Source: Candidatus Forterrea multitransposorum CG_2015-17_Forterrea_25_41
Lineage (GTDB): Archaea > Iainarchaeota > Iainarchaeia > Iainarchaeales > CSSED10-239
Assembly (NCBI GenBank): GCA_009392915.1
Contig: CP045477.1
Coordinates: 416,001-480,000 of the forward strand
Direction: 5' to 3'
DNA: 64,000 bases
The notes beneath the pieces are model-generated. The model saw only the letters and a program-made list of their open reading frames with translations, did no database searches and was not told the origin of the DNA. Position numbers and translations under genes: made by a program. Of the stretch, positions 1 through 40,785 are shown piece after piece (positions within the stretch are counted from its first letter, which is position 1; each line of letters begins with the position of its first letter).

Positions 1-140
1 GTTTTTTTACTAAATATATGTCTTAATAATCTACTCTTTCCAGAATTATTTCCACCTACAAAAATATTTAGTTTTGATAAACTATTAATAGTATCTGGAT
101 AACCTTCAAAATTTAATTTAATATTTTTAATTAATTCCAT
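1..140 (-). CDS. N-terminal fragment (approx 46 aa, truncated by window start) of an AAA_15/OLD-family-like ATPase. The ATG at 138-140 overlaps the hsdS stop codon.
   Basis: Reverse-strand translation MELIKNIKLNFEGYPDTINSLSKLNIFVGGNNSGKSRLL..., with a Walker A-like GGNNSGKS. The ATG overlaps the TAA of the upstream hsdS by 1 nt. Confidence 0.45.
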   Translation of the reverse strand, partial: MELIKNIKLNFEGYPDTINSLSKLNIFVGGNNSGKSRLLRHIFSKK

Positions 141-1432
141 TAATATTTCACCCTTATTTTTCCAGACATTAATTTAGGTAATAATAAATCTCTTATTTCA
201 GATAATTTCTTATTTTGCCTTTTATTTTCTGAAATTTTAATAAATGTACTTCTGATCATTGAATTATATTTTTTCAATATTTCATTTGATGGATTCAATA
301 TCTGTATTTTCTGAATGTTTTCATTATTAATTGCTTGCATTGTTGTACCATTACATAAGTTATTTTTTATTATTTCAAAATCATCATTTAATACAAAATT
401 CCAAATATAATACAAAGCATTTTCTTTTATGTCTAACCCAGCAAATCCAGTAGATAAAATTAAATTTTCTAATTCCCAAGCGCTATACTTATCAAAATAA
501 GTTATTTTTTTACTATTTTTCATTTTAGCAAACCACACTGTATTCTCTTTAGGTTGCATATTTGCTCTTGATGGTCTTTTTATAAATGTAATTTTAGTAT
601 TATAATTTATTATTTCAGAATTATCTATATCTGCAGTTGCAACATATGTTTTTTCATCAAAGTCTTCTGTACCAACCTTTGTAAAAGACGTTAGATTATT
701 GTCTCCTAAATGCCCAACATCCCATCCTTTAGGTATTTCTTTTTTTAATTCTTTATTATAAACCATTTCTCCTCCACTAGATTTATAAGGTTCTCCTTTT
801 TCATTTGGAAATTCAAAATCAACAAACCATCTTTTAAATAAAGTTTTTCCTATTTCTTCAAGTGTTTGATTCATTTTTCTGTTTAGTTCTATTTTTTCAT
901 CTAAATCAGAAAGGATTTTTGCAATTTTTAACATTTCATTATTATTTTTTGGAACTATAACTAGTAATTTTTTAATATCCCCTAAACTAAGTGTTTTTTG
1001 TGTAGAACCACCAACATTTTTTTCAATTTGATTTAAAATATATTTAGAATTTAAGGCATAATATAAAAAATAACTGTTTATATTCGGGTTAATTATCACC
1101 GTATTTTGCCCTAAACAAAATAATTCTGTTGTATTTACAAAACTTGTAATTCCATATGTTCCAACCCTAGTCATTATGATATCATTTTGCTTTGGGATAT
1201 AATTTTTAGTAAATTCATCATAAATAGATTTAGTAACTTTTAATGTATTTGATAAATCTAAACTACCTGATTTCACATCAGTTACTCTTACCATTGATAT
1301 TCCTTTATTAACATAAATTGGAGTTTTATGACAAGAATCAATAACTATAGATATATCATTTAATGATTTAACGTCCCAATCTTTAGGAATTAATCCAATT
1401 TCTGTTTTTTTAAATTTTATTTTATTAATCAT
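140..1432 (-). CDS. hsdS: Type I restriction-modification specificity subunit HsdS.
   Basis: 430 aa. Two target-recognition halves separated by a conserved central helix (KKLLVIVP...LDEKIELNRKMNQTLEEIGKTLFKRWFVDFEFP) and a C-terminal LLPKLMSGKIRV motif typical of HsdS. Sits in an operon with hsdM. Confidence 0.8.
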   Translation of the reverse strand: MINKIKFKKTEIGLIPKDWDVKSLNDISIVIDSCHKTPIYVNKGISMVRVTDVKSGSLDLSNTLKVTKSIYDEFTKNYIPKQNDIIMTRVGTYGITSFVNTTELFCLGQNTVIINPNINSYFLYYALNSKYILNQIEKNVGGSTQKTLSLGDIKKLLVIVPKNNNEMLKIAKILSDLDEKIELNRKMNQTLEEIGKTLFKRWFVDFEFPNEKGEPYKSSGGEMVYNKELKKEIPKGWDVGHLGDNNLTSFTKVGTEDFDEKTYVATADIDNSEIINYNTKITFIKRPSRANMQPKENTVWFAKMKNSKKITYFDKYSAWELENLILSTGFAGLDIKENALYYIWNFVLNDDFEIIKNNLCNGTTMQAINNENIQKIQILNPSNEILKKYNSMIRSTFIKISENKRQNKKLSEIRDLLLPKLMSGKIRVKY

Positions 1433-2400
1433 AATATTTCCAATTTATGTTCTGAATTAACAATTTCATAAAAATCATTAATATAAGTAATTATGTTTAA
1501 ATATATCGTATTATTTTTTACATCTGATACTTCTATGTGAGAAGTTATTTCAAAAATAGATCCTGTTCTTGTTTCTTCAGGAATATTAATATTCTCAGAA
1601 TACTCTAAAATTCTAAAATTTTTAATTTTAACTTTATCTTCTCCAATTTCAATTTGATTTAATTTAGACATATAATCATTAATATAACTTTTAAAATCAT
1701 ATGAATTGCTAAATTCCTCAATTGAATTAATAAAATTTTCTTCAGGATAAATATTATCTAATTTAATAAATAAACCATCACCTATCGGTTCTATAACTAT
1801 ATCTTTATTAAATAACTCTTTAAATTCTAATGCACAATTTTTATTAAATCCTAAATCCCTTGTAATTAAAAATACATTTTCATAATCATCAAAATCTTGA
1901 GATAATATTGTCTCCCATATCAAGGCATCTTTAAAACCAGAATCAGATTTTTTATCTTTATTAAAAGGAGACTTTTTTTCTAATGCTCTTATTTTTAGAT
2001 CATTAAATTTTTGAAAAATTAAATCATCAGAAATTTTTAAAATTTTTATTTTGTTTTCAAAAATATAATTTCCAATTTTATCCAAAATAAAATCTTTTAT
2101 ATTAAAATCATCTGAAATTTTAAATAAGTTAATTTTCGAATCAATATAAGCATATCTTTTTTTAATGTCACCTAATTTTCTGCTATCGGATTTAAAACAA
2201 TCTCTTCTTTGTTTTTCTAATTCAAATAAAGTTATATCTGTTATTGATAATTTAATATATTCAAACAAATTTTTTTTAAAAATATAATCATACAATTTTT
2301 TAAAATCATTATTAAATGTAAAAGTATGATAATAAATATTATCACTACTATTTTCTTTTAACACATTTGTATCAAAAATAATTATTGTTTTTGGCATCAT
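1429..2400 (-). CDS. PIN-like nuclease-domain protein (N-terminal approx 190 aa) with a C-terminal domain of unknown function.
   Basis: N-terminal IIIFDTNVL, plus downstream acidic residues including FLITRD (the hhTxD-type PIN motif). 4-nt overlap with both neighbouring genes. Confidence 0.45.
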   Translation of the reverse strand: MMPKTIIIFDTNVLKENSSDNIYYHTFTFNNDFKKLYDYIFKKNLFEYIKLSITDITLFELEKQRRDCFKSDSRKLGDIKKRYAYIDSKINLFKISDDFNIKDFILDKIGNYIFENKIKILKISDDLIFQKFNDLKIRALEKKSPFNKDKKSDSGFKDALIWETILSQDFDDYENVFLITRDLGFNKNCALEFKELFNKDIVIEPIGDGLFIKLDNIYPEENFINSIEEFSNSYDFKSYINDYMSKLNQIEIGEDKVKIKNFRILEYSENINIPEETRTGSIFEITSHIEVSDVKNNTIYLNIITYINDFYEIVNSEHKLEIL

Positions 2401-2879
2401 TTAAAATCAAATATTTTCTTTTTATTAGAATAATTAATTATTATTTTATATTTTAAATTGTTTTCTAAATTCATCTCTTTTTCAAAATTTTCTTTTGAAC
2501 TATAATTTAATTTAACTAATATTTTATCAGTGTGATTTGGTTGTAATAGAAATGGAAATATAACTGGTTTATATGATGGTAGAGGATAACTTGTTTTTAA
2601 ACCAACACCCAAACTTACAGATTCAGATACATTCAAATAAACTGAATTAGGCATAAATTTAGTTTTATTATGATATAATTCCATCTTCTTAATTGTAGTT
2701 GGTCTTTGACCAACATTACTTAAATAAAAATAAATCCAAATTTCATTTTCATCCATCTTAACTTCTAAAACTTCTTTTTCAACATATAATTTAGGTTTAT
2801 TTTTACTTTCTATATAAAAAGATAATAATATACCTAATATTGCAACTATTAAACCCAATATACTAATTATATATTCCAT
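2397..2879 (-). CDS. Small single-pass membrane protein with a beta-rich C-terminal domain, hypothetical.
   Basis: N-terminal hydrophobic helix ISILGLIVAILGILLSFYI. Overlapping start and stop with its neighbours. Confidence 0.4.
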   Translation of the reverse strand: MEYIISILGLIVAILGILLSFYIESKNKPKLYVEKEVLEVKMDENEIWIYFYLSNVGQRPTTIKKMELYHNKTKFMPNSVYLNVSESVSLGVGLKTSYPLPSYKPVIFPFLLQPNHTDKILVKLNYSSKENFEKEMNLENNLKYKIIINYSNKKKIFDFK

Positions 2880-3370
2880 TAGTTATCATTTTTCTTTTTA
2901 AACTTTCTAATTAATGCTAATAATAGTTCTTGTTTAAAAAATATTATACTTAGTAATTCTATACCAAAAGCAATATTTAAAACAACAGATAATTTAAAAT
3001 TATTAATTATTGTTTTGTAAATACTTATTTGACTATTTTCTATATTTTCAAATTTTTGATTTAAATTAGTTATTTGATACTGTATAATATTATAATCATT
3101 TTTTATTTCTTCAAAATCTTTTTTAGTTATATTTTCTGTTATTAATTTGTTATAGTCAGACTGACAATTTTTTAGTTGTGAACTAATCTGTATTATATTG
3201 TTATTTAATGTAATTTTATTTAATTCACAATTATTTAATTTATCTACAATAGGTTTACATTTATCCTCTGATAATAAACCAAACAATCCTTGTATAATTG
3301 GAATAAATATCATCACAATTATAAACACAACTAAAATACCTCCAATTATTGCAAATGGATTATCCGCCAT
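2879..3370 (-). CDS. Small membrane protein with two TM segments flanking a Cys-containing coiled-coil region, hypothetical.
   Basis: N-terminal TM helix (FAIIGGILVVFIIVMIFIPII), a Q/N/K-rich heptad-like middle region, and a C-terminal hydrophobic segment. Start lies 2 nt after the hsdM stop. Confidence 0.4.
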   Translation of the reverse strand: MADNPFAIIGGILVVFIIVMIFIPIIQGLFGLLSEDKCKPIVDKLNNCELNKITLNNNIIQISSQLKNCQSDYNKLITENITKKDFEEIKNDYNIIQYQITNLNQKFENIENSQISIYKTIINNFKLSVVLNIAFGIELLSIIFFKQELLLALIRKFKKKNDN

Positions 3371-3372
3371 AT

Positions 3373-4890
3373 CTATTTCACCTCAAAGCCGATTCCTTTA
3401 AGATTTTTCTTAATCTCTTCTTCTAATTTCTTAGATTCTTTAAATTGTTCGCTTAATTCTTTTGTAAGGCGAGTCATCTTTTCTTGAAAAACTTCAGGAT
3501 CTTCCTCTTCTTCCTTAAAACCAACGTAACGGCCAGGTGTAAGAATAAAGTCTTGCTTTTCAATCTCTTCAAGAGAGGCTGATTTACAAAAAGAAAGCTC
3601 ATCTTGATAACTTTTTTTGTTTATCGGGTCTTTTGACCTCCAAAGAGAAACAGTTTCTGAAATTTTTGTAAAATCTTCTTCAGTGAGTTCTCTTTGTCTT
3701 CTGTTAATCATTTGTCCAAGATTTCTAGCATCAATAAAAAGAGTTTCTCCTTTTCTATGTGCAGGTTTATTTCTATTAACAAACCAAAGACAAGCAGGAA
3801 TCATTGTATTATAAAATAATTGAGATGGAAGAGCAATAATACACTCTACAAGATCATCTTTAAGTATATTTTTTCTAATTTCTCCTTCTCCAGAAGTATT
3901 AGAACTTAAAGAACCGTTTGAAAGAACAAAACCAGCAATTCCTTTAGATCCTAAATGATAAATAAAATGTTGAACCCATGCAAAATTAGCGTTCCCTGCA
4001 GGAGGAACTCCATATTTCCAACGAGCATCCTCTCTTAATAGATCTCCAGACCAGTCTGAATCATTAAAAGGAGGATTTGCAATTATAAAATCAGCTCTTA
4101 AGTCTTTATGTTCATCATTTAGAAAACTACCTTCATTATTCCAAACAACTTTATTATCAATACCTCTTATTGCAAGATTCATTTTACATAATTTCCAAGT
4201 TGTTTGATTAGATTCTTGACCATAAATAGATATTTGACCTATTTTTCCACCATGTTTTTCAACAAACTCTTCAGATTGAACAAACATTCCTCCAGAACCA
4301 CAACAAGGGTCAAATATTCTTCCTTTAAAAGGTTGTATTATTTCAACTAATAATTTAACAATAGATTTAGGAGTATAGAATTGGCCTCCTTTTTTTCCTT
4401 CAGCAGAAGCAAATTGTCCTAAGAAATATTCATATACTCTTCCTAAGATATCTTTACTATTATCTTTAGAATTAAAAGAAATTGTTCCTATAAGATCAAT
4501 TAACGCTCCTAATTTTGTTTTATCTAAAGATGGTTTTGAATAATCTTTTGGAAGTATTCCTTTAAGTGTTGGATTTTCTTTTTCAATTAAATCCATTGAA
4601 TCATCAATAATTCTTCCAATTTCTATATTTTTTGCATTATCTTGAAGATATTCCCATCTTGCTTTTTTTGGAACATAAAATACTCTTTGAGAGACATATT
4701 CATCTTTATCTTCTGGGTCTGCATATTCTTCTTCTTTTAGTTTAGTATATAGTTCTTCAAAAGAATCAGATATATATTTTAAAAATATTAAACCTAAAAC
4801 TACATGTTTATATTCTGCAGCATCCATATTACTTCTTAATTTATCTGCTGCTTTCCAAAGCTTTTCTTCAAATCCTAAATCTTGAGTCAT
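3373..4890 (-). CDS. hsdM: Type I restriction-modification N6-adenine DNA methyltransferase subunit HsdM.
   Basis: 505 aa with an AdoMet motif ([10 protein letters not shown]) and the catalytic NPPF ([12 protein letters not shown]). N-terminal HsdM_N-like region present. Confidence 0.9.
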
Positions 4891-4960
4891 AATTAATCTC
4901 TTCTTTTATATAAATATAATATACATCTAAACACTTTTAAAGGTATTATGTATTAAAAAA

Positions 4961-5347
4961 CTATTCAAATCTAATCTCTTTTCTATCATCTTCTATTGCT
5001 TGTTTTATTTTATTATATTCTTCTTCACTTAACTCTATTATATTACTATAAGTATAATCTTCCTTTGCAAGCTTAAATCTTTCTTGTAAAGAACGTGCAC
5101 CAAGACCTTTATTAGATAAAAGTAATAAAGAAAGTTTAATCTGATAAGGATATGGTTTTTTCCAAGAAGTAAATTCATTGTCTACTTTTTTAATAACTTT
5201 AAATATTCCAAAAATTACTCCTTGACCATAATATACAATAATATCATCTAAATTAACTAAATCTCTTTCATTTTTGTCTATAAAACCACAATATTCTTTT
5301 GTTTTAACAAAAGATTCCCAAGAATGGTTAATTAAGTAATATTTCAT
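4961..5347 (-). CDS. EVE-like (PUA-fold) domain protein.
   Basis: 128 aa. Pattern MKYYLINHSWESF ... DDIIVYYGQGVIFGIFKVIK ... PYQIKLSLL resembles the EVE consensus (YWLxK..P..F / GDLxFFYHS..IVGIAEV). Lies 70 bp upstream of hsdM on the same strand. Confidence 0.4.
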   Translation of the reverse strand: MKYYLINHSWESFVKTKEYCGFIDKNERDLVNLDDIIVYYGQGVIFGIFKVIKKVDNEFTSWKKPYPYQIKLSLLLLSNKGLGARSLQERFKLAKEDYTYSNIIELSEEEYNKIKQAIEDDRKEIRFE

Positions 5348-5349
5348 TT

Positions 5350-6729
5350 TTAATCATATCTAAATCCATATTTTTCAGTTAATTTTTGCCATTCATCATG
5401 ATATTTTTTCCATTCATTATATTCAAATTCATCTAATACCTGGCCAGAACCATAACTATCTAATTTATTTTGCAAAAATTTTAATCTCAAATTATCATCA
5501 TATTCTTCTTTAACACTTTCAAAAGATTTACCTTCAGAAACAACATAAATATTTGGCTTTGAAATTAATTTACCTACTCCAATATAATCTCCATCACTAT
5601 CTGTAATAATACTTGGAGTTGTTGTTTCTATAAAACAATAACCAGAATTATTATAAGAATATTTAATTGGGCATTTTAATCCTATTGAAGCATGCTGCTC
5701 TAATTCAAAACTAAAAATTGCAACACCATAACCTAACTCTTTTAACATTAATGCAAGTAAATTTGTTTTATCCCCACAAACTCCTGTTTGATCATATAAT
5801 GTTTCATAAGCATATCTATTACTATAATTATGATTAAAAGAATCCCAATCATAAGGCATTGTTTGAACTAAACTGATTGCAATCCTTGCTTGATCATCAG
5901 TATTATTTGTTATTTTTTTAATTTCATTAATTAATGGTAGAATATATCTTTCTTGATCTTCAGTATTAACATACATTAATGACATATATTCAGAAGTAGG
6001 AGGAGATTCATAAGAAGAATAAGTTACTGTTCGAGGTAAATTTGACAAATAATAATTAAACCCATTATAGACAGTGTAATTAAAACTATTAGGTACACCT
6101 CTTAGAGTATAATTTAACTTAATTGGCTTAGGTTCAGTTTGCAATTTATGTAAACACTTCCCATTAATATAAATTTCATCTATATCACATAAACATTTTT
6201 CAGGAAACTCAATTAAATTACCTTTCTGACAAAAATAAGGCTTAATATTTGAACAATTATTATATAAAGTACCATCTTCACACCTATTAATAACAAAATT
6301 AAATAATAAATTCATAATTATATAAATTAGAATAATAATAATAACAATATTTCTTAATTGTTTAAATCTAATTTTTTTAAGTAAATGAATAACTAAAGTT
6401 AAAATTAAACTATTTAGTAAAATTATTATAAAAAAGTTAAAACTAACCTTTAATAATAGATAATTAAAACTTAATAAAATAATAACATAAACTAAAGTCC
6501 ATATAAATAAATAAAAATTAAATCTAAATTTATTTTTATAAATTATAACAGTTATTATGCGTGAAAATAAACTAAATATGATTGCTATAAATACTAATTT
6601 AGTGGTATTATTAACAATATTTAATAAATTTAAAAATAAAGAAGATAAATAATATAATAGACTATAAATTAATATCCAAAATAGAAACCAGTAAGATTTA
6701 TAAAATCTAAAAATATTATTATTTCTCAT
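5350..6729 (-). CDS. Membrane-anchored protein with a Cys-rich ectodomain and a transglutaminase-like cysteine protease core.
   Basis: First ~140 aa are multi-TM, followed by a Cys-rich segment. The C-terminus carries GVCGDKTNLLALMLKELGYGVAIF...EQHASIGL...GYCFIETT, which resembles a transglutaminase-like C/H/D triad. Confidence 0.4.
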   Translation of the reverse strand: MRNNNIFRFYKSYWFLFWILIYSLLYYLSSLFLNLLNIVNNTTKLVFIAIIFSLFSRIITVIIYKNKFRFNFYLFIWTLVYVIILLSFNYLLLKVSFNFFIIILLNSLILTLVIHLLKKIRFKQLRNIVIIIILIYIIMNLLFNFVINRCEDGTLYNNCSNIKPYFCQKGNLIEFPEKCLCDIDEIYINGKCLHKLQTEPKPIKLNYTLRGVPNSFNYTVYNGFNYYLSNLPRTVTYSSYESPPTSEYMSLMYVNTEDQERYILPLINEIKKITNNTDDQARIAISLVQTMPYDWDSFNHNYSNRYAYETLYDQTGVCGDKTNLLALMLKELGYGVAIFSFELEQHASIGLKCPIKYSYNNSGYCFIETTTPSIITDSDGDYIGVGKLISKPNIYVVSEGKSFESVKEEYDDNLRLKFLQNKLDSYGSGQVLDEFEYNEWKKYHDEWQKLTEKYGFRYD

Positions 6730-6746
6730 TTTATCACATTAATATT

Positions 6747-7028
6747 TCAATGTCTTTTTTTAATTGATCTTTTAGAAATATTAGAACTTCTATATCTTAC
6801 AGGTTTACTTTTTCTATAAGAATCTTTTAAAACAGAATCACTTTCATTTTTTAAATCATGAATAGTTGGTTCTTTATAACCTAACTGCTTTAAAGCAGAA
6901 TCAAATATCTTTGTAAAGCTTAAGTTATTCTCTTGTACAAATCTTTCTTGACTTTTTGTAATTCTCATATTTATTCTTATATTTCTTCTTTCTGGAGAAG
7001 TATCTCTTTTTACATCTTCTATATTCAT
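6747..7028 (-). CDS. Small ribbon-helix-helix-like DNA-binding protein (start taken at the internal Met, MNIEDVKRD...).
   Basis: A beta-strand (IRINMRITKSQ) followed by two helices. Basic C-terminal tail. Confidence 0.3.
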   Translation of the reverse strand: MNIEDVKRDTSPERRNIRINMRITKSQERFVQENNLSFTKIFDSALKQLGYKEPTIHDLKNESDSVLKDSYRKSKPVRYRSSNISKRSIKKRH

Positions 7029-7164
7029 ATAAATCAATCCCTTAAATACACTTTTCCCAATCAAGAGCATAGTGTATATACAACTTTGACACAACGAGTT
7101 TATAAATAGATCGATTACACTAAAATATAATAAAAAGAGAAGATTAAAAAATAAATCTTATCTA

Positions 7165-7890
7165 CTAAACTTTAATCTCTATTAAAACAGGATTATGGTC
7201 ACTAAATCTTCTAATTTCATCATTTTCAAGAACTTTGCAAGAAATAATGTTTTTAAAAATAGGTTTATTCATAAAAAAGTAATCATTTTGCCACTTAACT
7301 TTACTTTTTTTATGTCTTAAGGTCTGTACAGGATATTCTTTATCAGTTAAATCAAAAGCATCAAAAAAATTAAAATCTTTTAATCTATCAAAAAAAATCT
7401 TATGAGAGTTATTATATTTATATATTAAATCAAATTGAATACTTGCATTTAAATCTCCCCCCAATATAATATTTCTTTTACCATTAAGTTTACCATAAAA
7501 CAAAGGAGATAAATCAGATAACATGCTATGTAGATTAGGAATTGAATAACCATCTGTCATAAGACCATATAATGATATAAAAGTAAGTTTTTTATTATTT
7601 ATAACAGTATTTGCTATTGTTAAAGATCCATTAAATTTAGTATTTATTGTTTCCTGAGAAAGATTGTATTTTTTACTATAAATTCCAGATCCCCAATTAC
7701 GATTTTTATCAATTTTATTCCAAATAAGATTTGAATCTTTTTTAATATGTTCAGGAGGATTTGATTCTTGAAATAAATATATATCTGCATCAATATTATT
7801 TAAAAAATAATCCCAAATATCTTTATTTAGCTTTTTATTTTTCCAATAATCCATATTCCAAGTAACTATTTTAATATTCATTCTTATCAA
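7165..7890 (-). CDS. Endonuclease/exonuclease/phosphatase (EEP) family protein.
   Basis: N-terminal KIVTWNMDYW (TWN motif) and C-terminal RFSDHNPV (SDH motif), both characteristic of the EEP fold. Confidence 0.7.
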   Translation of the reverse strand: MIRMNIKIVTWNMDYWKNKKLNKDIWDYFLNNIDADIYLFQESNPPEHIKKDSNLIWNKIDKNRNWGSGIYSKKYNLSQETINTKFNGSLTIANTVINNKKLTFISLYGLMTDGYSIPNLHSMLSDLSPLFYGKLNGKRNIILGGDLNASIQFDLIYKYNNSHKIFFDRLKDFNFFDAFDLTDKEYPVQTLRHKKSKVKWQNDYFFMNKPIFKNIISCKVLENDEIRRFSDHNPVLIEIKV

Positions 7891-7898
7891 TTTTTATT

Positions 7899-8738
7899 TT
7901 AAATAACCTTCTTAATATTCTTTTCCAAGTAAACAATAAACTTATCTTTATTCTTTCCTTTTAACTTTTCCCAAGAATTATATACTTTTCTTATTTTATC
8001 TTCTAAAATAATATCTTCTTTATCATTATATCTGTATCTTGCATATTTTTCTTTATTATAACCTAACTTATATGCTAAAATATTTTCAATAGTAGATGTA
8101 AAAGTTTCACTAAATGACTGCTTTTTTATTCCACCATATTTATCTAAAATATATTTTTCAATTCTATTATATATTTCATTATTTGAATTAATTACATGAA
8201 TAAGTTCATGAATTAATAAAATATATATTCTATTTTTAGTAAATTTTCTATAATCAACATCATCTCCTATAGATATATGAAAAGATAAATTTGTTGCAGA
8301 ACCTCCAAAACCAGGCCTTGTATTATTTGCAACAAAGAAAGTAGAGCTTACTTTTGTAGAATTATAAATAACATCTAAATAAGGTTTAATTATTTTAAGT
8401 TCTTTCTCTTTAAAATTAGTTATAAATGTATTTAGAAAATCTTCTGATTTTTTATTAATAACAATAGGAAATAATTTTTTTAAAACAATTAGATGTTTTT
8501 TTTCAATATTACTTAATTTTTTTTTATTAACAATATTATCTATTAAATTTTTGTAATTAAGCCTATTTGTAGAAATAATACTATAATCTTTATTAATCAA
8601 AAAAATTAAATCTACCATTTCTTTTAATTGATTTTTATTAGCAAAAGTATAAACTTTATCAATATTACAATATGCTTTACAAGCAAGTCTTAAATCTTTT
8701 GAAGGTTTTATTAAGTTTAGTTTAATATCAACACTCAT
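7899..8738 (-). CDS. Hypothetical protein with a HExxH motif (possible zincin-like).
   Basis: LLIHELIHV motif. Start lies 8 nt upstream of the EEP gene. Confidence 0.3.
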   Translation of the reverse strand: MSVDIKLNLIKPSKDLRLACKAYCNIDKVYTFANKNQLKEMVDLIFLINKDYSIISTNRLNYKNLIDNIVNKKKLSNIEKKHLIVLKKLFPIVINKKSEDFLNTFITNFKEKELKIIKPYLDVIYNSTKVSSTFFVANNTRPGFGGSATNLSFHISIGDDVDYRKFTKNRIYILLIHELIHVINSNNEIYNRIEKYILDKYGGIKKQSFSETFTSTIENILAYKLGYNKEKYARYRYNDKEDIILEDKIRKVYNSWEKLKGKNKDKFIVYLEKNIKKVI

Positions 8739-8805
8739 AAAGATATCTATTAAATAAAGGTTTTTTAAAAGTTATGTTTAATAAGGAGCTATCATAAACT
8801 AAAAA

Positions 8806-9147
8806 TTAAACATTTACCCAAATAACACAACCTTTCTTATGAACGTAAGGTTTTGGAGAAGAATATCTTTTGATATCAGACAATACCCAAGCATGAGGAT
8901 TATTATATTTTAAATCTAAAACATCTTCTTTCTTTATTTGATGCTTTTCTAAGTTTTTAAATAAAATATCTTTGTTAATTTTTATTGAATCTTTAATAGT
9001 ACATTCACCATATACTTTTTTGCTGCCACTCATAATAAGAGCAATTCTTTCACCAATCTTTGAAGTATTAAAGTTTCTTATCTCCCAAGTCTTTTTTCCT
9101 TCTAAGATTAAATTTAACCATTTTTCTTTAATTATAAGGCCTTTCAT
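8806..9147 (-). CDS. ASCH domain (PUA-like) protein.
   Basis: 113 aa. KEKWLNLILEGKKTWEIR ... GERIALIMSG ... GECTIKD matches the ASCH pattern (K..w...i.sG.KtvE.R...gd.i.l......vvg.a.i). Confidence 0.6.
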   Translation of the reverse strand: MKGLIIKEKWLNLILEGKKTWEIRNFNTSKIGERIALIMSGSKKVYGECTIKDSIKINKDILFKNLEKHQIKKEDVLDLKYNNPHAWVLSDIKRYSSPKPYVHKKGCVIWVNV

Positions 9148-9244
9148 AAAAGATATCTATATTTCAAAAGGCTTTTAAACTCTTTTATGTAGTAATTAAA
9201 CTATTTATTAAAAAACAAAAATATATCTTAATTAAGATGATAAA

Positions 9245-10603
9245 TTATTTATCAATAACTTTCCAATATCCTGCTTTGTCTGAACCTATTCTTTTTATCT
9301 TCTTTTGCTCTTTTAATATTTTTAAATATCTTTCAATAGTCTTTGTACTTAAATTAAATTCTGTTGCCATTTGAGCATAAGTAACTTTATTATTAGCTTT
9401 AATTAATTTTAATATTTTTACACCGACATTTACACCGACATTTACACCGACATTTACACCGACATTTACAGTGTCTTTTACAGGTGCATTTACACCGACA
9501 TTCATAGTAGATTCTATTATTTTTTGTCTTTTAAAAACAATACAAAACCAATCAGTATCTATATTAAACTTAACACTTGGAAAAAGTTTTTTTATTCTTT
9601 TAATACCAGAACCAATCTTTTCAATAAACTCTGTTCTTTGTAAACAACCTGCTAAAATAGGATTTCTTAATATACTTACTTTTCCAAAATCTTTTGGACT
9701 AAAAAGAAGTTTTCCTGGATTTAATATTTCAACTCTATCTTCATACACTTCTACCAATATTCTTCCTTGAACAAAATAATCTCTATGAATCATGGCATTT
9801 AGTACTGCTTCCCTTAAAGCAGCCTCTGGTATTTCAGGGGTTTCAACTCTTCTTAAATTAATAATATCAGCCCGTGTTTTTGTATTTCTTAGGATAAATA
9901 ACACAGCATTTTCAAAATTTGATAAAAAGTCAGATTCAAATACTTTTTTATCAAGCATAACAGCCTTAGTATCTCCTTGGTATAAAACACAACTAATATC
10001 TGCATTTAAAAAGAATTTAGTAATTCTTTTTGAAAATAATAATGCACAGGCATTATTTGGAATATCATTTGTTAAAAGATTTAAATTTTTTAAAATATGC
10101 TCTTTTGATAGAGTTGTTGAAAATTTTGCTTTTTTTCTATATTTAAGAAATTTAGTATTATCTATATCTTTAAAATTAAATGAAGAAGTTTGTTTTTCAA
10201 AAGAAATTTTATTTTCGTTTTGTAAAAAATCAATAATTTCATTTCTATCTAGCTTTTGAGAGTTAGCACCTTGCCTTACATAAAAAGAACCACCTACTAA
10301 ATATGGTTTATCTTTTCCTAAAGGAACATATATTATACCAATATTATCTATGATTTCAAAATTAACAACTAAAGAGGGATCTATGTTTCTTGCAATTGTT
10401 TGTACTTCAGAGGAAAATCTATTGTTTATAGAAATACCTTTTATTTCTCCTTTATCTGTAACTCCTAAAAGAATTTTACCTCCATCTGAGTTTGCAAAAG
10501 CACAAATTGATTTTCCAATTTCTTTATGGTTTAAACTTTCTTTAAACTCAAGAGTATATCCTTCTCCTGTTTTTATAAGATTAAGTAAGTTCTTTTTATC
10601 CAT
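9245..10603 (-). CDS. AlbA_2 (Schlafen-like, formerly divergent AAA) + HATPase_c_4 + C-terminal wHTH putative transcriptional regulator.
   Basis: N-terminal LLNLIKTGEGYTLEFKESL...ICAFANSDGGKILLGV, a mid EAVLNAMIHRDY motif, and a C-terminal wHTH (TIERYLKILKEQKKIKRIG). Confidence 0.7.
   Translation of the reverse strand: MDKKNLLNLIKTGEGYTLEFKESLNHKEIGKSICAFANSDGGKILLGVTDKGEIKGISINNRFSSEVQTIARNIDPSLVVNFEIIDNIGIIYVPLGKDKPYLVGGSFYVRQGANSQKLDRNEIIDFLQNENKISFEKQTSSFNFKDIDNTKFLKYRKKAKFSTTLSKEHILKNLNLLTNDIPNNACALLFSKRITKFFLNADISCVLYQGDTKAVMLDKKVFESDFLSNFENAVLFILRNTKTRADIINLRRVETPEIPEAALREAVLNAMIHRDYFVQGRILVEVYEDRVEILNPGKLLFSPKDFGKVSILRNPILAGCLQRTEFIEKIGSGIKRIKKLFPSVKFNIDTDWFCIVFKRQKIIESTMNVGVNAPVKDTVNVGVNVGVNVGVNVGVKILKLIKANNKVTYAQMATEFNLSTKTIERYLKILKEQKKIKRIGSDKAGYWKVIDK
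9421..9504. repeat. 12-bp tandem repeat (CACCGACATTTA): four perfect plus three degenerate copies, in frame inside the regulator CDS (encodes the (VNVG)n linker).
   Basis: Read directly in the sequence: caccgacattta x4, followed by cagtgtctttta, caggtgcattta and caccgacattca. Confidence 0.85.
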
Positions 10604-37327: not shown

Positions 37328-40150
37328 TTAAGAGAAAAGAGGTTTAAGATACTTTCCAGTATAACTTTTCTTTTCTTTTAAAATTTCTTTTACAGGGCCT
37401 TCAAAGATTATCTCTCCACCTTCATCTCCACCCTCAGGACCTAAATCAATTATCCAATCAGAAGCTTTAATAACATCTAAATTATGTTCAATTACTAAAA
37501 CACTGTTTCCCTTGTCAACAAGTTTATTTAAAACTTCAATTAATTTTTTAACATCATGGAAGTGAAGTCCAGTTGTAGGTTCGTCCAACAAATAAAGAGT
37601 CTTACCAGTATCTCTTTTAGATAACTCTTTTGTAATTTTTATTCTTTGTGCTTCTCCACCAGATAAAGTTACAGAACTTTGTCCAAGCTTAATGTATGAA
37701 AGACCAACATCCATTAATGTTTTTAATTTTCTTTTAAGAGAAGGTATATTTTCAAAGAAAGTATAAGCTTCTTCAACTGACATATCTAAAACATCAGCAA
37801 TTGATTTTCCTTTATATTTTACATCTAAAGTTTCATGGTTATATCTTTTACCTTTACATTCTTCACAATCAACATAAATATCAGGCAAGAAATTCATTTC
37901 AATCTTAATTTGTCCATCTCCAGAACATGCTTCACATCTTCCACCCTTAACATTAAAAGAAAATCTTCCTTGATCATACCCTCTTATTTTTGCTTCTTGA
38001 GTTTGTGCGAAAAGACTTCTGATATCATCAAAGACTTTTGTATATGTTGCAGGATTTGATCTAGGAGTTCTTCCAATAGGAGATTGATCAATAGAAATTA
38101 CTTTATCTATTTTATCTTTATAAATAATTTCTTTATGCTTACCAGGACTTTCTTTAGATTTATAAATATCATTCATTAGTTGTTTATATAAAATATCATA
38201 AATTAAAGTTGATTTTCCTGAACCTGAAACACCAGTAACAGAAGTTAAAACACCAGTTGGTATTTTTACAAAAATATTTTTTAAATTATTTTCTTCAGCT
38301 CCAACAATTTCTATAAAGTCTTTTGGTTTTCTAGTTTCTTTTTTAATTTCAACTTTAAGTTCTTTTGACAAATATTTTCCTGTTAAAGAATTTTTATCAT
38401 TTAAAATTTCTTTAGGAGTTCCTTTTGAAACTATATAACCTCCATGAACACCAGCTCCAGGACCAATATCAATTACATAATCTGCTTTTAAAATAGTTTC
38501 ATCATCATGTTCAACAACAATTACAGTGTTACCTAAATCTCTTAGTTTAAATAAAGTTTCAATTAATTTTTCATTATCTCTTTGGTGAAGTCCAATAGAT
38601 GGTTCGTCCAAGATATATAACACACCTGTAAGGTTAGTTCCTAAGTTGGTTGCAAGTCTTATTCTTTGTGCTTCTCCACCTGAAAGAGTTCCTGCCTTTC
38701 TTGAAAGAGTTAAATATCCTAAACCAACTTTTTCTAAAAATTCTAAACGAGAATTAATTTCTTTTAAAATATGTTTTGCAATTTCTTCTTGTTTTTTTGT
38801 AAGCTTTAAATTTTTAAAAAACAAAATTGCATTATTAACAGACATATCAGTAATATCAATAATTGATTTTCCAGAAATTTTAACAGCTAAGACTTTTCTT
38901 TTAAGTCTTTTTCCATGACATTTAGGACATGGTAAAGTTTTCATATATTTTTCCATTTCTTGTTTTCTATAATCAGACTCTGTTTGATGATAAAGTCTTT
39001 CTGTTTGTGGAATTAAACCCTCCCATACACCACTATATGAAAAGTTAGAAGTTCCATTCTTTCCAGAAAGATTAAAATCAATTGGATTTTCAGAACCATA
39101 CATTAAGATATTATATTGTTTTTTTGTAAAATCCTTAATTGGCATTAAAGGAGTAAAACCATATCTTCTTCCAACAGCACTTAAATGTTGTCCTCTCCAT
39201 CCATCAACAGCATTTCTATAAACAGCAATTGCACCATCTGCAATTGATTTTTCTTTATCAGGAATAATTAAATCAGGATCAAAAATCATTTTAATTCCAA
39301 GACCAGAACACTCTTCACAAGCACCAAATGGAGCATTAAAAGAAAACATCCTAGGTTCAAGTTCTTCAAAGGAAAGACCACATATAGGGCATGCCATTTT
39401 TGAAGAATATATTTGTTCTCTTTTTTCTTTTTGAGAATATATTTTTACAAGTCCATCAGGAGATTTTTTAATAGCATTTGTAACTGCTTCTATAAGTCTT
39501 GATTTTTCTTTTTCTTCAGAAGATATTTTATCAATAACTATTTCAATATCATGTTTTTTATATCTATCTAAAGTTATTGTTTCATCAGTTCTTTTTATTT
39601 CTCCATTAACTCTAACTTTAGTATATCCTTCTTTGTTTAGTTCTTCAAAAACTCTTTCATAAGTTCCTTTTTTTTGTCTAATGATTGGTGAAAGAATAAT
39701 TATTTCATCTTTAAAAGAATCTAAAATATTTTCTGTTAGCTTTTGAGGAGATTGATTTTCTATTTTTTGAGAAGGATGATCAGGACAAAAAGGAGTTCCA
39801 ACTCTTGCATATAATAATCTTAAATAATCATAAACTTCAGTAACTGTTCCAACAGTTGATCTTGGATTTTTAGAAGTTGTTTTTTGTTCAATTGAAATTG
39901 CTGGAGATAAACCATCTATAGAATCTACATCTGGTTTTTTCATCATCCCTAAAAATTGTCTTGCATATGCAGAAAGTGATTCAACATACCTTCTTTGCCC
40001 TTCAGCATAAATAGTATCAAAAGCTAAAGTTGATTTTCCTGAACCTGAAAGACCAGTAATAACAACTAATTTATCTTTTGGTATATTTATATCTATATTT
40101 TTTAGATTGTGCTCTCTTGCACCCTTAATAATAATATCTTTTAATGCCAT
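37328..40150 (-). CDS. uvrA: Excinuclease ABC subunit A (UvrA).
   Basis: 940 aa. Two ABC cassettes ([10 protein letters not shown]; [10 protein letters not shown]), signature LSGGEAQRI in both halves, Zn-finger Cys pairs. Confidence 0.9.
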
Positions 40151-40504: not shown

Positions 40505-40785
40505 TATTAAGTGTACAGGCACTTACTGGTCGAAAAACAGTTCAAGAAAACATTTAGCTTTATAAAATCTCAAGTCCGCAACCCAAAAAGCATCAAACAC
40601 TTAGGATACTGCTGCTTCCTTCCGGATCTGACAGGGTTTACTAAGATATTCGATCTTAATGGACGAACCGTCAGCAATTTTACAAAGAGTGCCTCCTTGC
40701 TTATTTGCCTTCCAGTAATAATCACTCCGGCTATGTAGATTTCCGGTAACAGGAGACTACAACCCCCCCAGCTAGCCTATACAAG
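40505..40785 (-). ncRNA. Signal recognition particle RNA (SRP/7S RNA).
   Basis: Reverse strand contains GUCAGAUCCGGAAGGAAGCAGC, the conserved helix-8 motif (cf. GGUCCGGAAGGAAGCAGCC). It is a GC-rich ~280-nt island in AT-rich DNA, with an oligo-T run at the 3' end. Ends are approximate. Confidence 0.6.

Follow-up and report, generated by a model that had tools for sequence, protein, structure and literature searches.

The association between stand-alone EVE proteins and type I restriction-modification (R-M) systems is already known from the work of Bell, Wolf and Koonin (2020, BMC Biol 18:159, PMC7641849), who reported that these proteins are closely associated with type I systems, mostly in archaea. 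According to the model put forward there, type I systems would also restrict modified DNA recognised by the EVE protein, and the mark deposited by HsdM would itself go unrecognised by EVE (PMC7641849). Many slow-evolving EVE proteins are described there as housekeeping factors (PMC7641849). The published association is purely computational, and the searchable literature yielded no experiments on a stand-alone EVE protein paired with a type I system.

The way in which an EVE domain handles a modified base has been described for VcaM4I, a fused EVE-HNH enzyme that acts alone. Its EVE domain flips 5mC or 5hmC into a hydrophobic pocket, where the base is sandwiched by W82, Y130 and P24 (PMC7897488). 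The original EVE paper, in so far as it is cited in PMC7897488, had stressed residues W26 and Y82 of 2eve. Stand-alone archaeal EVE proteins of the UPF0310 group are represented by the structures of PH1033 from P. horikoshii and MJECL36 from M. jannaschii (1wmm, 2hd9 and 2p5d). To our knowledge, no function has been established for either of them. The m6A-reading YTH domains, which include the archaeal YTH-like N-terminal domain of McrB, form a further point of comparison; in readers of the McrB type, the domain is part of a fusion with an AAA+ GTPase. In addition, a defence protein with a PUA domain has been reported to bind m6-dAMP (PMC12871103).

Here, a locus of this kind is examined in a 64-kb stretch of DNA, referred to below as the window, that comes from an AT-rich archaeon (about 24% GC). 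An archaeal SRP RNA located on the minus strand at 40512-40783 (118 bits) confirms the host as an archaeon, and four tRNA genes (Tyr, Leu, Ser and Asp) are found elsewhere in the window. The locus resembles an arrangement illustrated by Bell et al. (Fig. 10), in which a stand-alone EVE gene lies next to hsdM, hsdS and hsdR in an archaeon and an ASCH gene is found nearby. On the other hand, it departs from the published description in that the DPANN family to which its EVE protein belongs has diverged beyond the reach of the Pfam EVE model, in that the linkage reaches adenine methyltransferases (MTases) other than those of type I systems (at the loci designated L004 and L014), and in that the ASCH gene, said to be present "often", is here separable from the EVE gene (in the related strain L027) and absent from all other EVE loci.

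The EVE gene (4961..5347, minus strand, ATG start) encodes a stand-alone protein of 128 aa. Sixteen homologous clusters with 46-93% amino acid identity to this protein were recovered among 5.8 billion sequences, and its closest copy, at locus L013, shares 93% of the amino acids and about 83% of the nucleotides. On the basis of these clusters and of the excess of protein over nucleotide identity, the ORF can be regarded as a real gene. The family is small and under purifying selection, and its hosts are DPANN archaea, represented by Iainarchaeota/Ainarchaeum-like MAGs whose labels read Candidatus Ainarchaeum/Iainarchaeum or "uncultured archaeon". Its invariant motifs are INHS(W)ES, TKEYCGF and W62-K-x-x-Y-P-x-Q-x-K. 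Direct searches with the 128-aa protein returned no Pfam match at E <= 0.1, the EVE model (PF01878) included, and the NCBIfam and PADLOC scans at E <= 0.1 were equally empty. A single-sequence phmmer search against PDB sequences gave chance matches only, and a precomputed Pfam domain is present on none of the 16 clusters.

Profile searches were based on an alignment of the family. When this profile was compared with PDB sequences, the best two matches were PH1033 (1wmm, E 0.033) and MJECL36 (2p5d, E 0.17). An exhaustive hmmsearch of 1.84 billion representatives returned 27 proteins at E <= 0.001, and seven of the ten that were scanned, chosen as the weakest or as multi-domain or longer members of the 27, are positive for Pfam EVE. 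These distant matches include P0043, with an EVE match at 1.3e-16, P0036 and P0042, both above the cut-off, and P0040, an EVE-HNH fusion. Consistent with this, hhalign aligned the family with Pfam-EVE-positive proteins at 99.2% probability (E 1.4e-19). The AF2 model of the 128-aa protein has a pLDDT of 88.8 and a pTM of 0.83, and the top three Foldseek matches to it are MJECL36 and PH1033; the next-best structural matches after EVE are the m6A-reading YTH domains, with 9-14% sequence identity.

From the predicted structure and the profile comparisons, the 128-aa protein is best described as a divergent EVE domain, predicted to form the six-stranded barrel of the PUA superfamily in its archaeal PH1033/UPF0310 version. 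The EVE-like PUA fold proposed in a first-pass annotation of the window, made from the sequence alone, is therefore borne out by AF2/Foldseek, by the family profile and by hhalign; a fold outside the PUA superfamily, which would have spoken against it, was considered, and the predicted fold falls inside, within the EVE type. In comparison with PH1033 and MJECL36, members of the present family are shorter by ~15 residues and have an extra conserved Trp (Trp62). Unlike VcaM4I, the protein consists of the EVE domain only, and lacks a fused HNH, PD-(D/E)XK, GIY-YIG or PLD nuclease; such fusions appear only in distant relatives (P0040). It likewise differs from the McrB-type readers in standing alone. 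The calculated pI of family members is near neutral (5.2-9.3), and strong non-specific DNA binding is therefore not obvious.

The putative ligand pocket of the protein departs from those of characterised EVE and YTH domains. The invariant K-E-Y-C-G-F of the family is aligned by hhalign with K-V-W-G-V of a canonical relative, so that relatives with the canonical motif, such as P0043, read "VWGV" where this family reads "YCGF". In this alignment the invariant Cys20 falls where canonical EVE proteins have their N-terminal pocket Trp, the same substitution that separates the family from VcaM4I-type proteins. Tyr19, beside Cys20, and His8 are invariant as well, Trp62 is an additional conserved residue, and the alignment also indicates that the aromatic-rich strand Y66-P-Y68-Q has been kept. 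H8, Y19, C20, W62 and Y66 may line one pocket, as judged from the alignment. An intermediate clade (P0032-P0042) carries Ile or Met at the pocket Trp position and, like the family, has a conserved His following strand 1 and a conserved Trp ahead of the YPxQxK strand. The 128-aa protein has no Pfam match to YTH, and the YTH aromatic cage (Trp-Trp-Trp/Leu) is not reproduced; if EVE positions are mapped onto YTH as we infer, the first cage Trp position is occupied by Cys. With the pocket remodelled in this way (Trp to Cys20), the ligand is not assignable by homology from either VcaM4I (5mC/5hmC) or YTH (m6A). The invariant Cys in place of the canonical pocket Trp, as the alignments place it, is the new detail that this family contributes.

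The EVE gene is separated from hsdM by a spacer of exactly 70 bp (4891..4960, minus strand), in agreement with the earlier claim, now supported by the ORF coordinates, that it lies 70 bp upstream of that gene. A T6 run directly follows the EVE stop. About 20 nt ahead of the hsdM ATG there is an A/T-rich, TATA-like sequence, TTTATATAAAA; within a genome of 24% GC, these elements could possibly represent a terminator and a separate hsdM promoter. Given a spacer of 70 bp with a T-run, co-transcription of EVE and hsdM is not assured. A conserved promoter or operator in this spacer was also considered and rejected, since only ~50 nt after the EVE stop are common with L013 and the corresponding sequence of locus L009 differs. 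On the other side, a gene (5350..6729, minus strand) stops 2 nt short of the EVE start codon; its product is a multi-pass membrane protein of 459 aa whose Transglut_core match (E 1.8e-4) is below cut-off. Homologs of this membrane protein are absent from every other EVE locus.

The hsdM gene (3373..4890, minus strand) encodes a type I N6-adenine DNA methyltransferase of 505 aa (Pfam N6_Mtase 3.9e-111 and HsdM_N 1.1e-27; TIGR00497 8.8e-56) that is 81% identical to the HsdM of L009. It is followed on the same strand, after a 2-nt gap, by orf163 (2879..3370), the product of which has only weak coiled-coil-type Pfam matches and, by eye, an N-terminal membrane segment and a coiled coil. Next comes orf160 (2397..2879, minus strand), encoding a small protein with a hydrophobic N-terminus by eye and a homolog of 64% identity at the same operon position in L009. 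A gene for a PIN_12-domain protein of 323 aa (1429..2400, minus strand; Pfam PIN_12 E 3.3e-11, 44.3 bits vs a cut-off of 32) overlaps the genes on both sides by 4 nt and is followed by hsdS (140..1432, minus strand), whose 430-aa product has NCBIfam matches to S subunits and is 57% identical to the HsdS of locus L011. The order is thus membrane protein, EVE, hsdM, two small ORFs, PIN_12 and hsdS, and the type I operon leaves the left edge of the window 139 nt after hsdS.

No hsdR homolog was found in the 64-kb window with three divergent HsdR queries, and a 940-aa ORF considered as a candidate (37328-40150, minus strand, beside the SRP RNA gene) was rejected, as it encodes UvrA. By analogy with L009 and L013, hsdR would be expected beyond the left edge of the window. 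Of the type I neighbour announced in the first-pass annotation, then, hsdM and hsdS are confirmed by Pfam and NCBIfam, while hsdR is not within the window. The genes embedded in the type I operons of other family members are different again (Abi_C, DUF3800, SduA_C, AlbA_2). The type I operons of the family are carriers of variable accessory genes, defence-related in look.

The surroundings of the other family members were annotated using precomputed Pfam tables, tblastn with the window proteins and the three HsdR queries, ORF listing and Pfam scans; L019 was excluded from the locus comparison, as its contig is too short to judge. Several arrangements place EVE ahead of the type I genes. In L009/L010 an HNH_3 gene is followed by EVE, hsdM, DUF3800, two further genes, hsdS, another gene and hsdR, and in L013 the order is simply EVE, hsdM, hsdS, hsdR. 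At the opposite end of the operon, EVE closes the series hsdM, Abi_C, a further gene and hsdR in L001-3; hsdM, DUF3800, a further gene, hsdS, SduA_C, a further gene, hsdR and a rhomboid gene in L011; and hsdM, a further gene, AlbA_2, hsdS, a further gene, hsdR and one more gene in L012. The same holds for L017 (hsdM, hsdS, hsdR, a further gene, EVE) and for L018 (hsdR, hsdM, hsdS, EVE), and in L007/8/15 the order hsdM, hsdS, hsdR, EVE is continued by a gene for a protein with a DpnI catalytic domain. In L016, hsdM and EVE are divergent and 50 bp apart. Finally, EVE follows a gene for a 792-aa N6_Mtase protein in L004-6, and a series consisting of a D12 (Dam-class) MTase, a further gene, GrpB and DUF4268 in L014.

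When these arrangements are grouped into locus types, EVE is found co-directionally at the margin of a type I R-M operon or of another N6-adenine MTase gene in 10 of the 11 informative types other than that of the window; the eleventh is the divergent L016. A DNA adenine MTase lies within about 3 kb of EVE in all 11, at most one gene intervenes between EVE and the edge of the system in 10, and restriction genes are present in 10. The link between EVE and type I R-M is accordingly not a coincidence of one window, as it recurs at every informative homolog locus: type I linkage itself is seen in L001, L007, L009, L011, L012, L013, L016, L017 and L018, and the linkage extends to adenine MTases of other kinds in L004 and L014.

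The partner with which EVE is found is decoupled from EVE itself. Identities to the EVE and HsdM proteins of the window are, respectively, 93 and 35% in L013, 74 and 81% in L009, 69 and 27% in L001, and 60 and 25% in L004. The DNA homology between the window and L013 is restricted to the EVE gene and ~50 nt after its stop, with both flanks differing. Within a single HsdM lineage (74-81% identical), EVE is located 5' in the window and L009 and 3' in L011 and L012, and one MAG (SMAG_U8115) harbours two EVE copies, L017 and L018, each beside its own type I system. Because the partner is decoupled, the flanks differ and position and copy number vary, the linkage between EVE and R-M appears to have been selected, rather than to reflect the shared ancestry of one island. 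The EVE-restriction link is real across unrelated HsdM lineages, and there is evidence of cassette-like exchange of the EVE gene. The idea that EVE serves as a fixed "anchor" for R-M insertion was discarded, given that the flank away from the R-M genes differs everywhere and that the end of the operon occupied by EVE changes within one HsdM lineage.

Some individual loci deserve comment. DpnI carries a C-terminal winged-helix sensor domain. The gene directly after EVE in L007 (9547-9975, plus strand; also present in L008 and L015), separated from it by a 2-nt gap, encodes a protein of 142 aa whose DpnI match is confined to the catalytic domain (profile positions 33-151 of 183); it is too short to contain the winged-helix sensor domain as well. 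EVE and this DpnI-like protein may constitute a split sensor-nuclease pair. The region of L014 at 1102-4874 (plus strand) is, alone among the EVE loci, without type I genes and contains the D12 MTase, GrpB and a 416-aa DUF4268 protein whose gene abuts EVE; these genes are preceded by two NUDIX genes, and the D12 MTase gene is co-directional with EVE and 2.8 kb upstream of it. In L013, the HsdM-like gene beside EVE (548-3058, plus strand) is unusually long, 836 aa by the ORF call with a GTG start, which may reflect an extra domain or a mis-called start.

Further upstream in the window, the genes from 140 to 10603 all lie on the minus strand, so that the co-directionality noticed earlier stands, as does the position of an ASCH gene about 3.5 kb upstream of EVE. 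The latter (8806-9147, minus strand) lies 3.46 kb from the EVE gene and encodes a protein of 113 aa with a Pfam ASCH (PF04266) match of 28.6 bits vs a cut-off of 21.2. In addition to this above-cut-off match, an ASCH-like fold was found for the protein, and its closest solved structures are a Zymomonas ASCH protein, which we take to be a ribonuclease, and the ac4C amidohydrolase YqfB. The description of ASCH as a known reader of 5mC, 5hmC or m6A is thus a loose one. Between ASCH and EVE, on the same strand, are orf279 (7899-8738), which has no family match and whose motif LLIHELIHVIN, of HExxH type, suggests a metallopeptidase-like protein of 279 aa; a gene for a 241-aa EEP-family protein (7165-7890) with a marginal Exo_endo_phos match (25.9 bits vs a cut-off of 24.5); and orf115 (6747-7094), encoding a basic protein of 115 aa (pI 10) without a family match. 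On the far side of ASCH lies a gene (9245-10603, minus strand) for a protein of 452 aa that combines SLFN_AlbA_2, HATPase_c_4 and wHTH in a COG2865-like architecture, a type mentioned by Bell et al.; it contains a (VGVN)n low-complexity linker and has a PADLOC pAgo-associated match (E 4e-19). In L007 and L012, too, AlbA_2-domain genes are found within or next to the type I operon.

Comparison with the L027 strain, 98.4% identical at the DNA level over window positions 9183-7099, divides this region in two. L027 keeps ASCH, orf279 and EEP in order, and its synteny with the window ends sharply at 7099, just upstream of orf115. Past this breakpoint it carries LemA, HNH_3, NUDIX and 2'-5' RNA ligase genes and no EVE or hsdM; everything from orf115 to the left edge of the window (membrane protein, EVE and type I genes) is absent at that site. 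The breakpoint at 7099 indicates that orf115, the first gene of the variable block, together with the membrane protein gene, EVE and the genes from hsdM to hsdS, forms a strain-variable unit separate from ASCH-orf279-EEP; the other boundary of this block falls outside the window. That the trio is kept in L027 is, at 98% nucleotide identity, not independent evidence. Near all other EVE family members, homologs of the ASCH, EEP, orf279, orf115 and membrane proteins of the window are absent. ASCH homologs at 43-50% identity, where contigs are longer, have neighbourhoods that resemble phage or plasmid gene arrays or consist of unrelated genes (holin, GH25 lysin, Phg_2220_C, a ParM-like ATPase, HNH and a TraG-like protein), and type I R-M, orf279 and EEP genes are absent beside them. 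ASCH-orf279-EEP, located 1.8-3.5 kb upstream of EVE, is a separate module. The small HNH_3 protein (70-76 aa) of L027 (3072-3284) is 77% identical to that of L009 (9747-9977), where its gene directly precedes EVE, a likeness suggesting that these variable regions draw on a common stock of small mobile genes.

Taken as a whole, the family provides an accessory gene to restriction systems that have an N6-adenine DNA methyltransferase at their core and are for the most part type I HsdRMS. We consider it somewhat probable that the EVE protein senses modified bases in trans on behalf of the restriction machinery encoded beside it. The analyses show that the protein is an EVE homolog in both fold and sequence and that it represents a family with conserved gene linkage; that it binds nucleic acid and reads a base, we infer. 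Following Bell, Wolf and Koonin (2020), the protein would bind nucleic acid. It would flip a modified base into its conserved pocket and work in trans with the adjoining restriction machinery, perhaps through contact with HsdR or HsdM. In this manner, a system whose attack is otherwise limited to unmethylated DNA would gain from EVE a type IV-like, modification-sensing input.

In contrast to a type IV-style sensor of foreign modifications, EVE might instead be the reader in a writer-reader pair, recognising the host's own m6A made by the adjacent MTase in order to regulate or shield, not to target; we regard this as possible, if on balance unlikely. Roles of this sort could include the control of restriction alleviation, the marking of hemimethylated sites after replication, or the sensing of m6A nucleotides from chromosome degradation. 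The only feature that every informative locus shares is an N6-adenine MTase, and this belongs to at least three classes (HsdM of several lineages, the 792-aa N6_Mtase protein and the D12 Dam-class enzyme). The m6A-reading YTH domains are the best structural matches after EVE, binding of m6-dAMP by a PUA-domain defence protein has been reported (PMC12871103), and in L007 EVE abuts a catalytic-domain-only relative of the m6A-dependent DpnI. Moreover, EVE is far more conserved than its partners HsdM and HsdS, which fits a ligand independent of sequence context. However, the YTH cage is not reproduced, with Cys at its first Trp position, the DpnI-like neighbour is confined to one locus type, and "restriction" is an equally good common denominator, with such genes in 10 of the 11 informative locus types besides the window. 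A nuclease input directed by m6A would put the host's own methylated DNA at risk, and therefore, if the ligand were m6A, the output would more likely be regulatory or protective. Within this line of thought, the specific proposal that the remodelled Cys/His/Tyr/Trp pocket reads the host's type I m6A, in DNA or as m6A nucleotides, and thereby gates restriction is one we hold to be doubtful; an enzymatic action of EVE on the modified base through the invariant His8/Cys20 pair is more remote.

The genes that abut EVE also bear on the proposed function, since they could make it one half, the sensor, of a type IV enzyme encoded by two genes, the other half being a small adjacent nuclease, with the type I adjacency resulting from the clustering of defence genes. 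Nuclease-family genes are indeed placed in this way in L007 (DpnI domain, 2-nt gap) and L014 (DUF4268, 2-nt gap), as is the 76-aa HNH_3 protein in L009/L010 (23-nt gap), and EVE-HNH fusions are represented both by P0040, among the nearest out-group relatives, and by VcaM4I. Nevertheless, the nuclease partner is not conserved: the abutting gene in the window encodes a membrane protein, nucleases of this sort are missing next to EVE in L001, L004, L013 and L018, and the linkage to MTase and R-M genes is far more consistent, all of which renders a split enzyme improbable. The single island envisaged by the first-pass annotation, in which EVE, ASCH, the EEP nuclease and the type I system would jointly sense modified bases, is very improbable and is not supported by the comparison. 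The genes from 140 to 10603 are co-directional and the ASCH protein weakly matches the PADLOC candidate PDC-M11B (E 7e-5), but in L027 ASCH-orf279-EEP is kept and the EVE/R-M block is replaced by unrelated genes, homologs of ASCH, EEP or orf279 are absent from all other EVE loci, and the ASCH homologs of 43-50% identity are without type I R-M, orf279 or EEP. It is scarcely credible, finally, that EVE is a housekeeping protein that binds modified RNA and has no functional tie to restriction. The near-neutral pI of the family would suit such a protein, as would the housekeeping nature of many slow-evolving EVE proteins (PMC7641849). Against it are the DNA adenine MTase near EVE in all 11 informative other locus types despite otherwise unrelated flanks, the occurrence in one MAG of two EVE copies with a type I system apiece, and the location of EVE within a strain-variable block.

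The modified-base sensor reading bears directly on the 2020 prediction that a stand-alone EVE protein lets a classical type I system attack modified DNA too. For this prediction, the DPANN family offers a compact test case: a protein of 128 aa with a confident model, complete EVE and hsdRMS operons in L007, L013 and L018, a near-identical EVE cassette beside two different type I systems, and one MAG with two EVE/type I pairs. What is added here is the remodelled pocket, the linkage to adenine MTases outside type I systems, the signs that EVE is exchanged as a cassette and the finding that the ASCH module is separate. The family also illustrates that part of EVE diversity is missed by current Pfam models and that rebuilding of the ligand pocket, from Trp to Cys, is possible. 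It thereby contributes a member and neighbourhood detail to a known association, the overall picture of which is unchanged.
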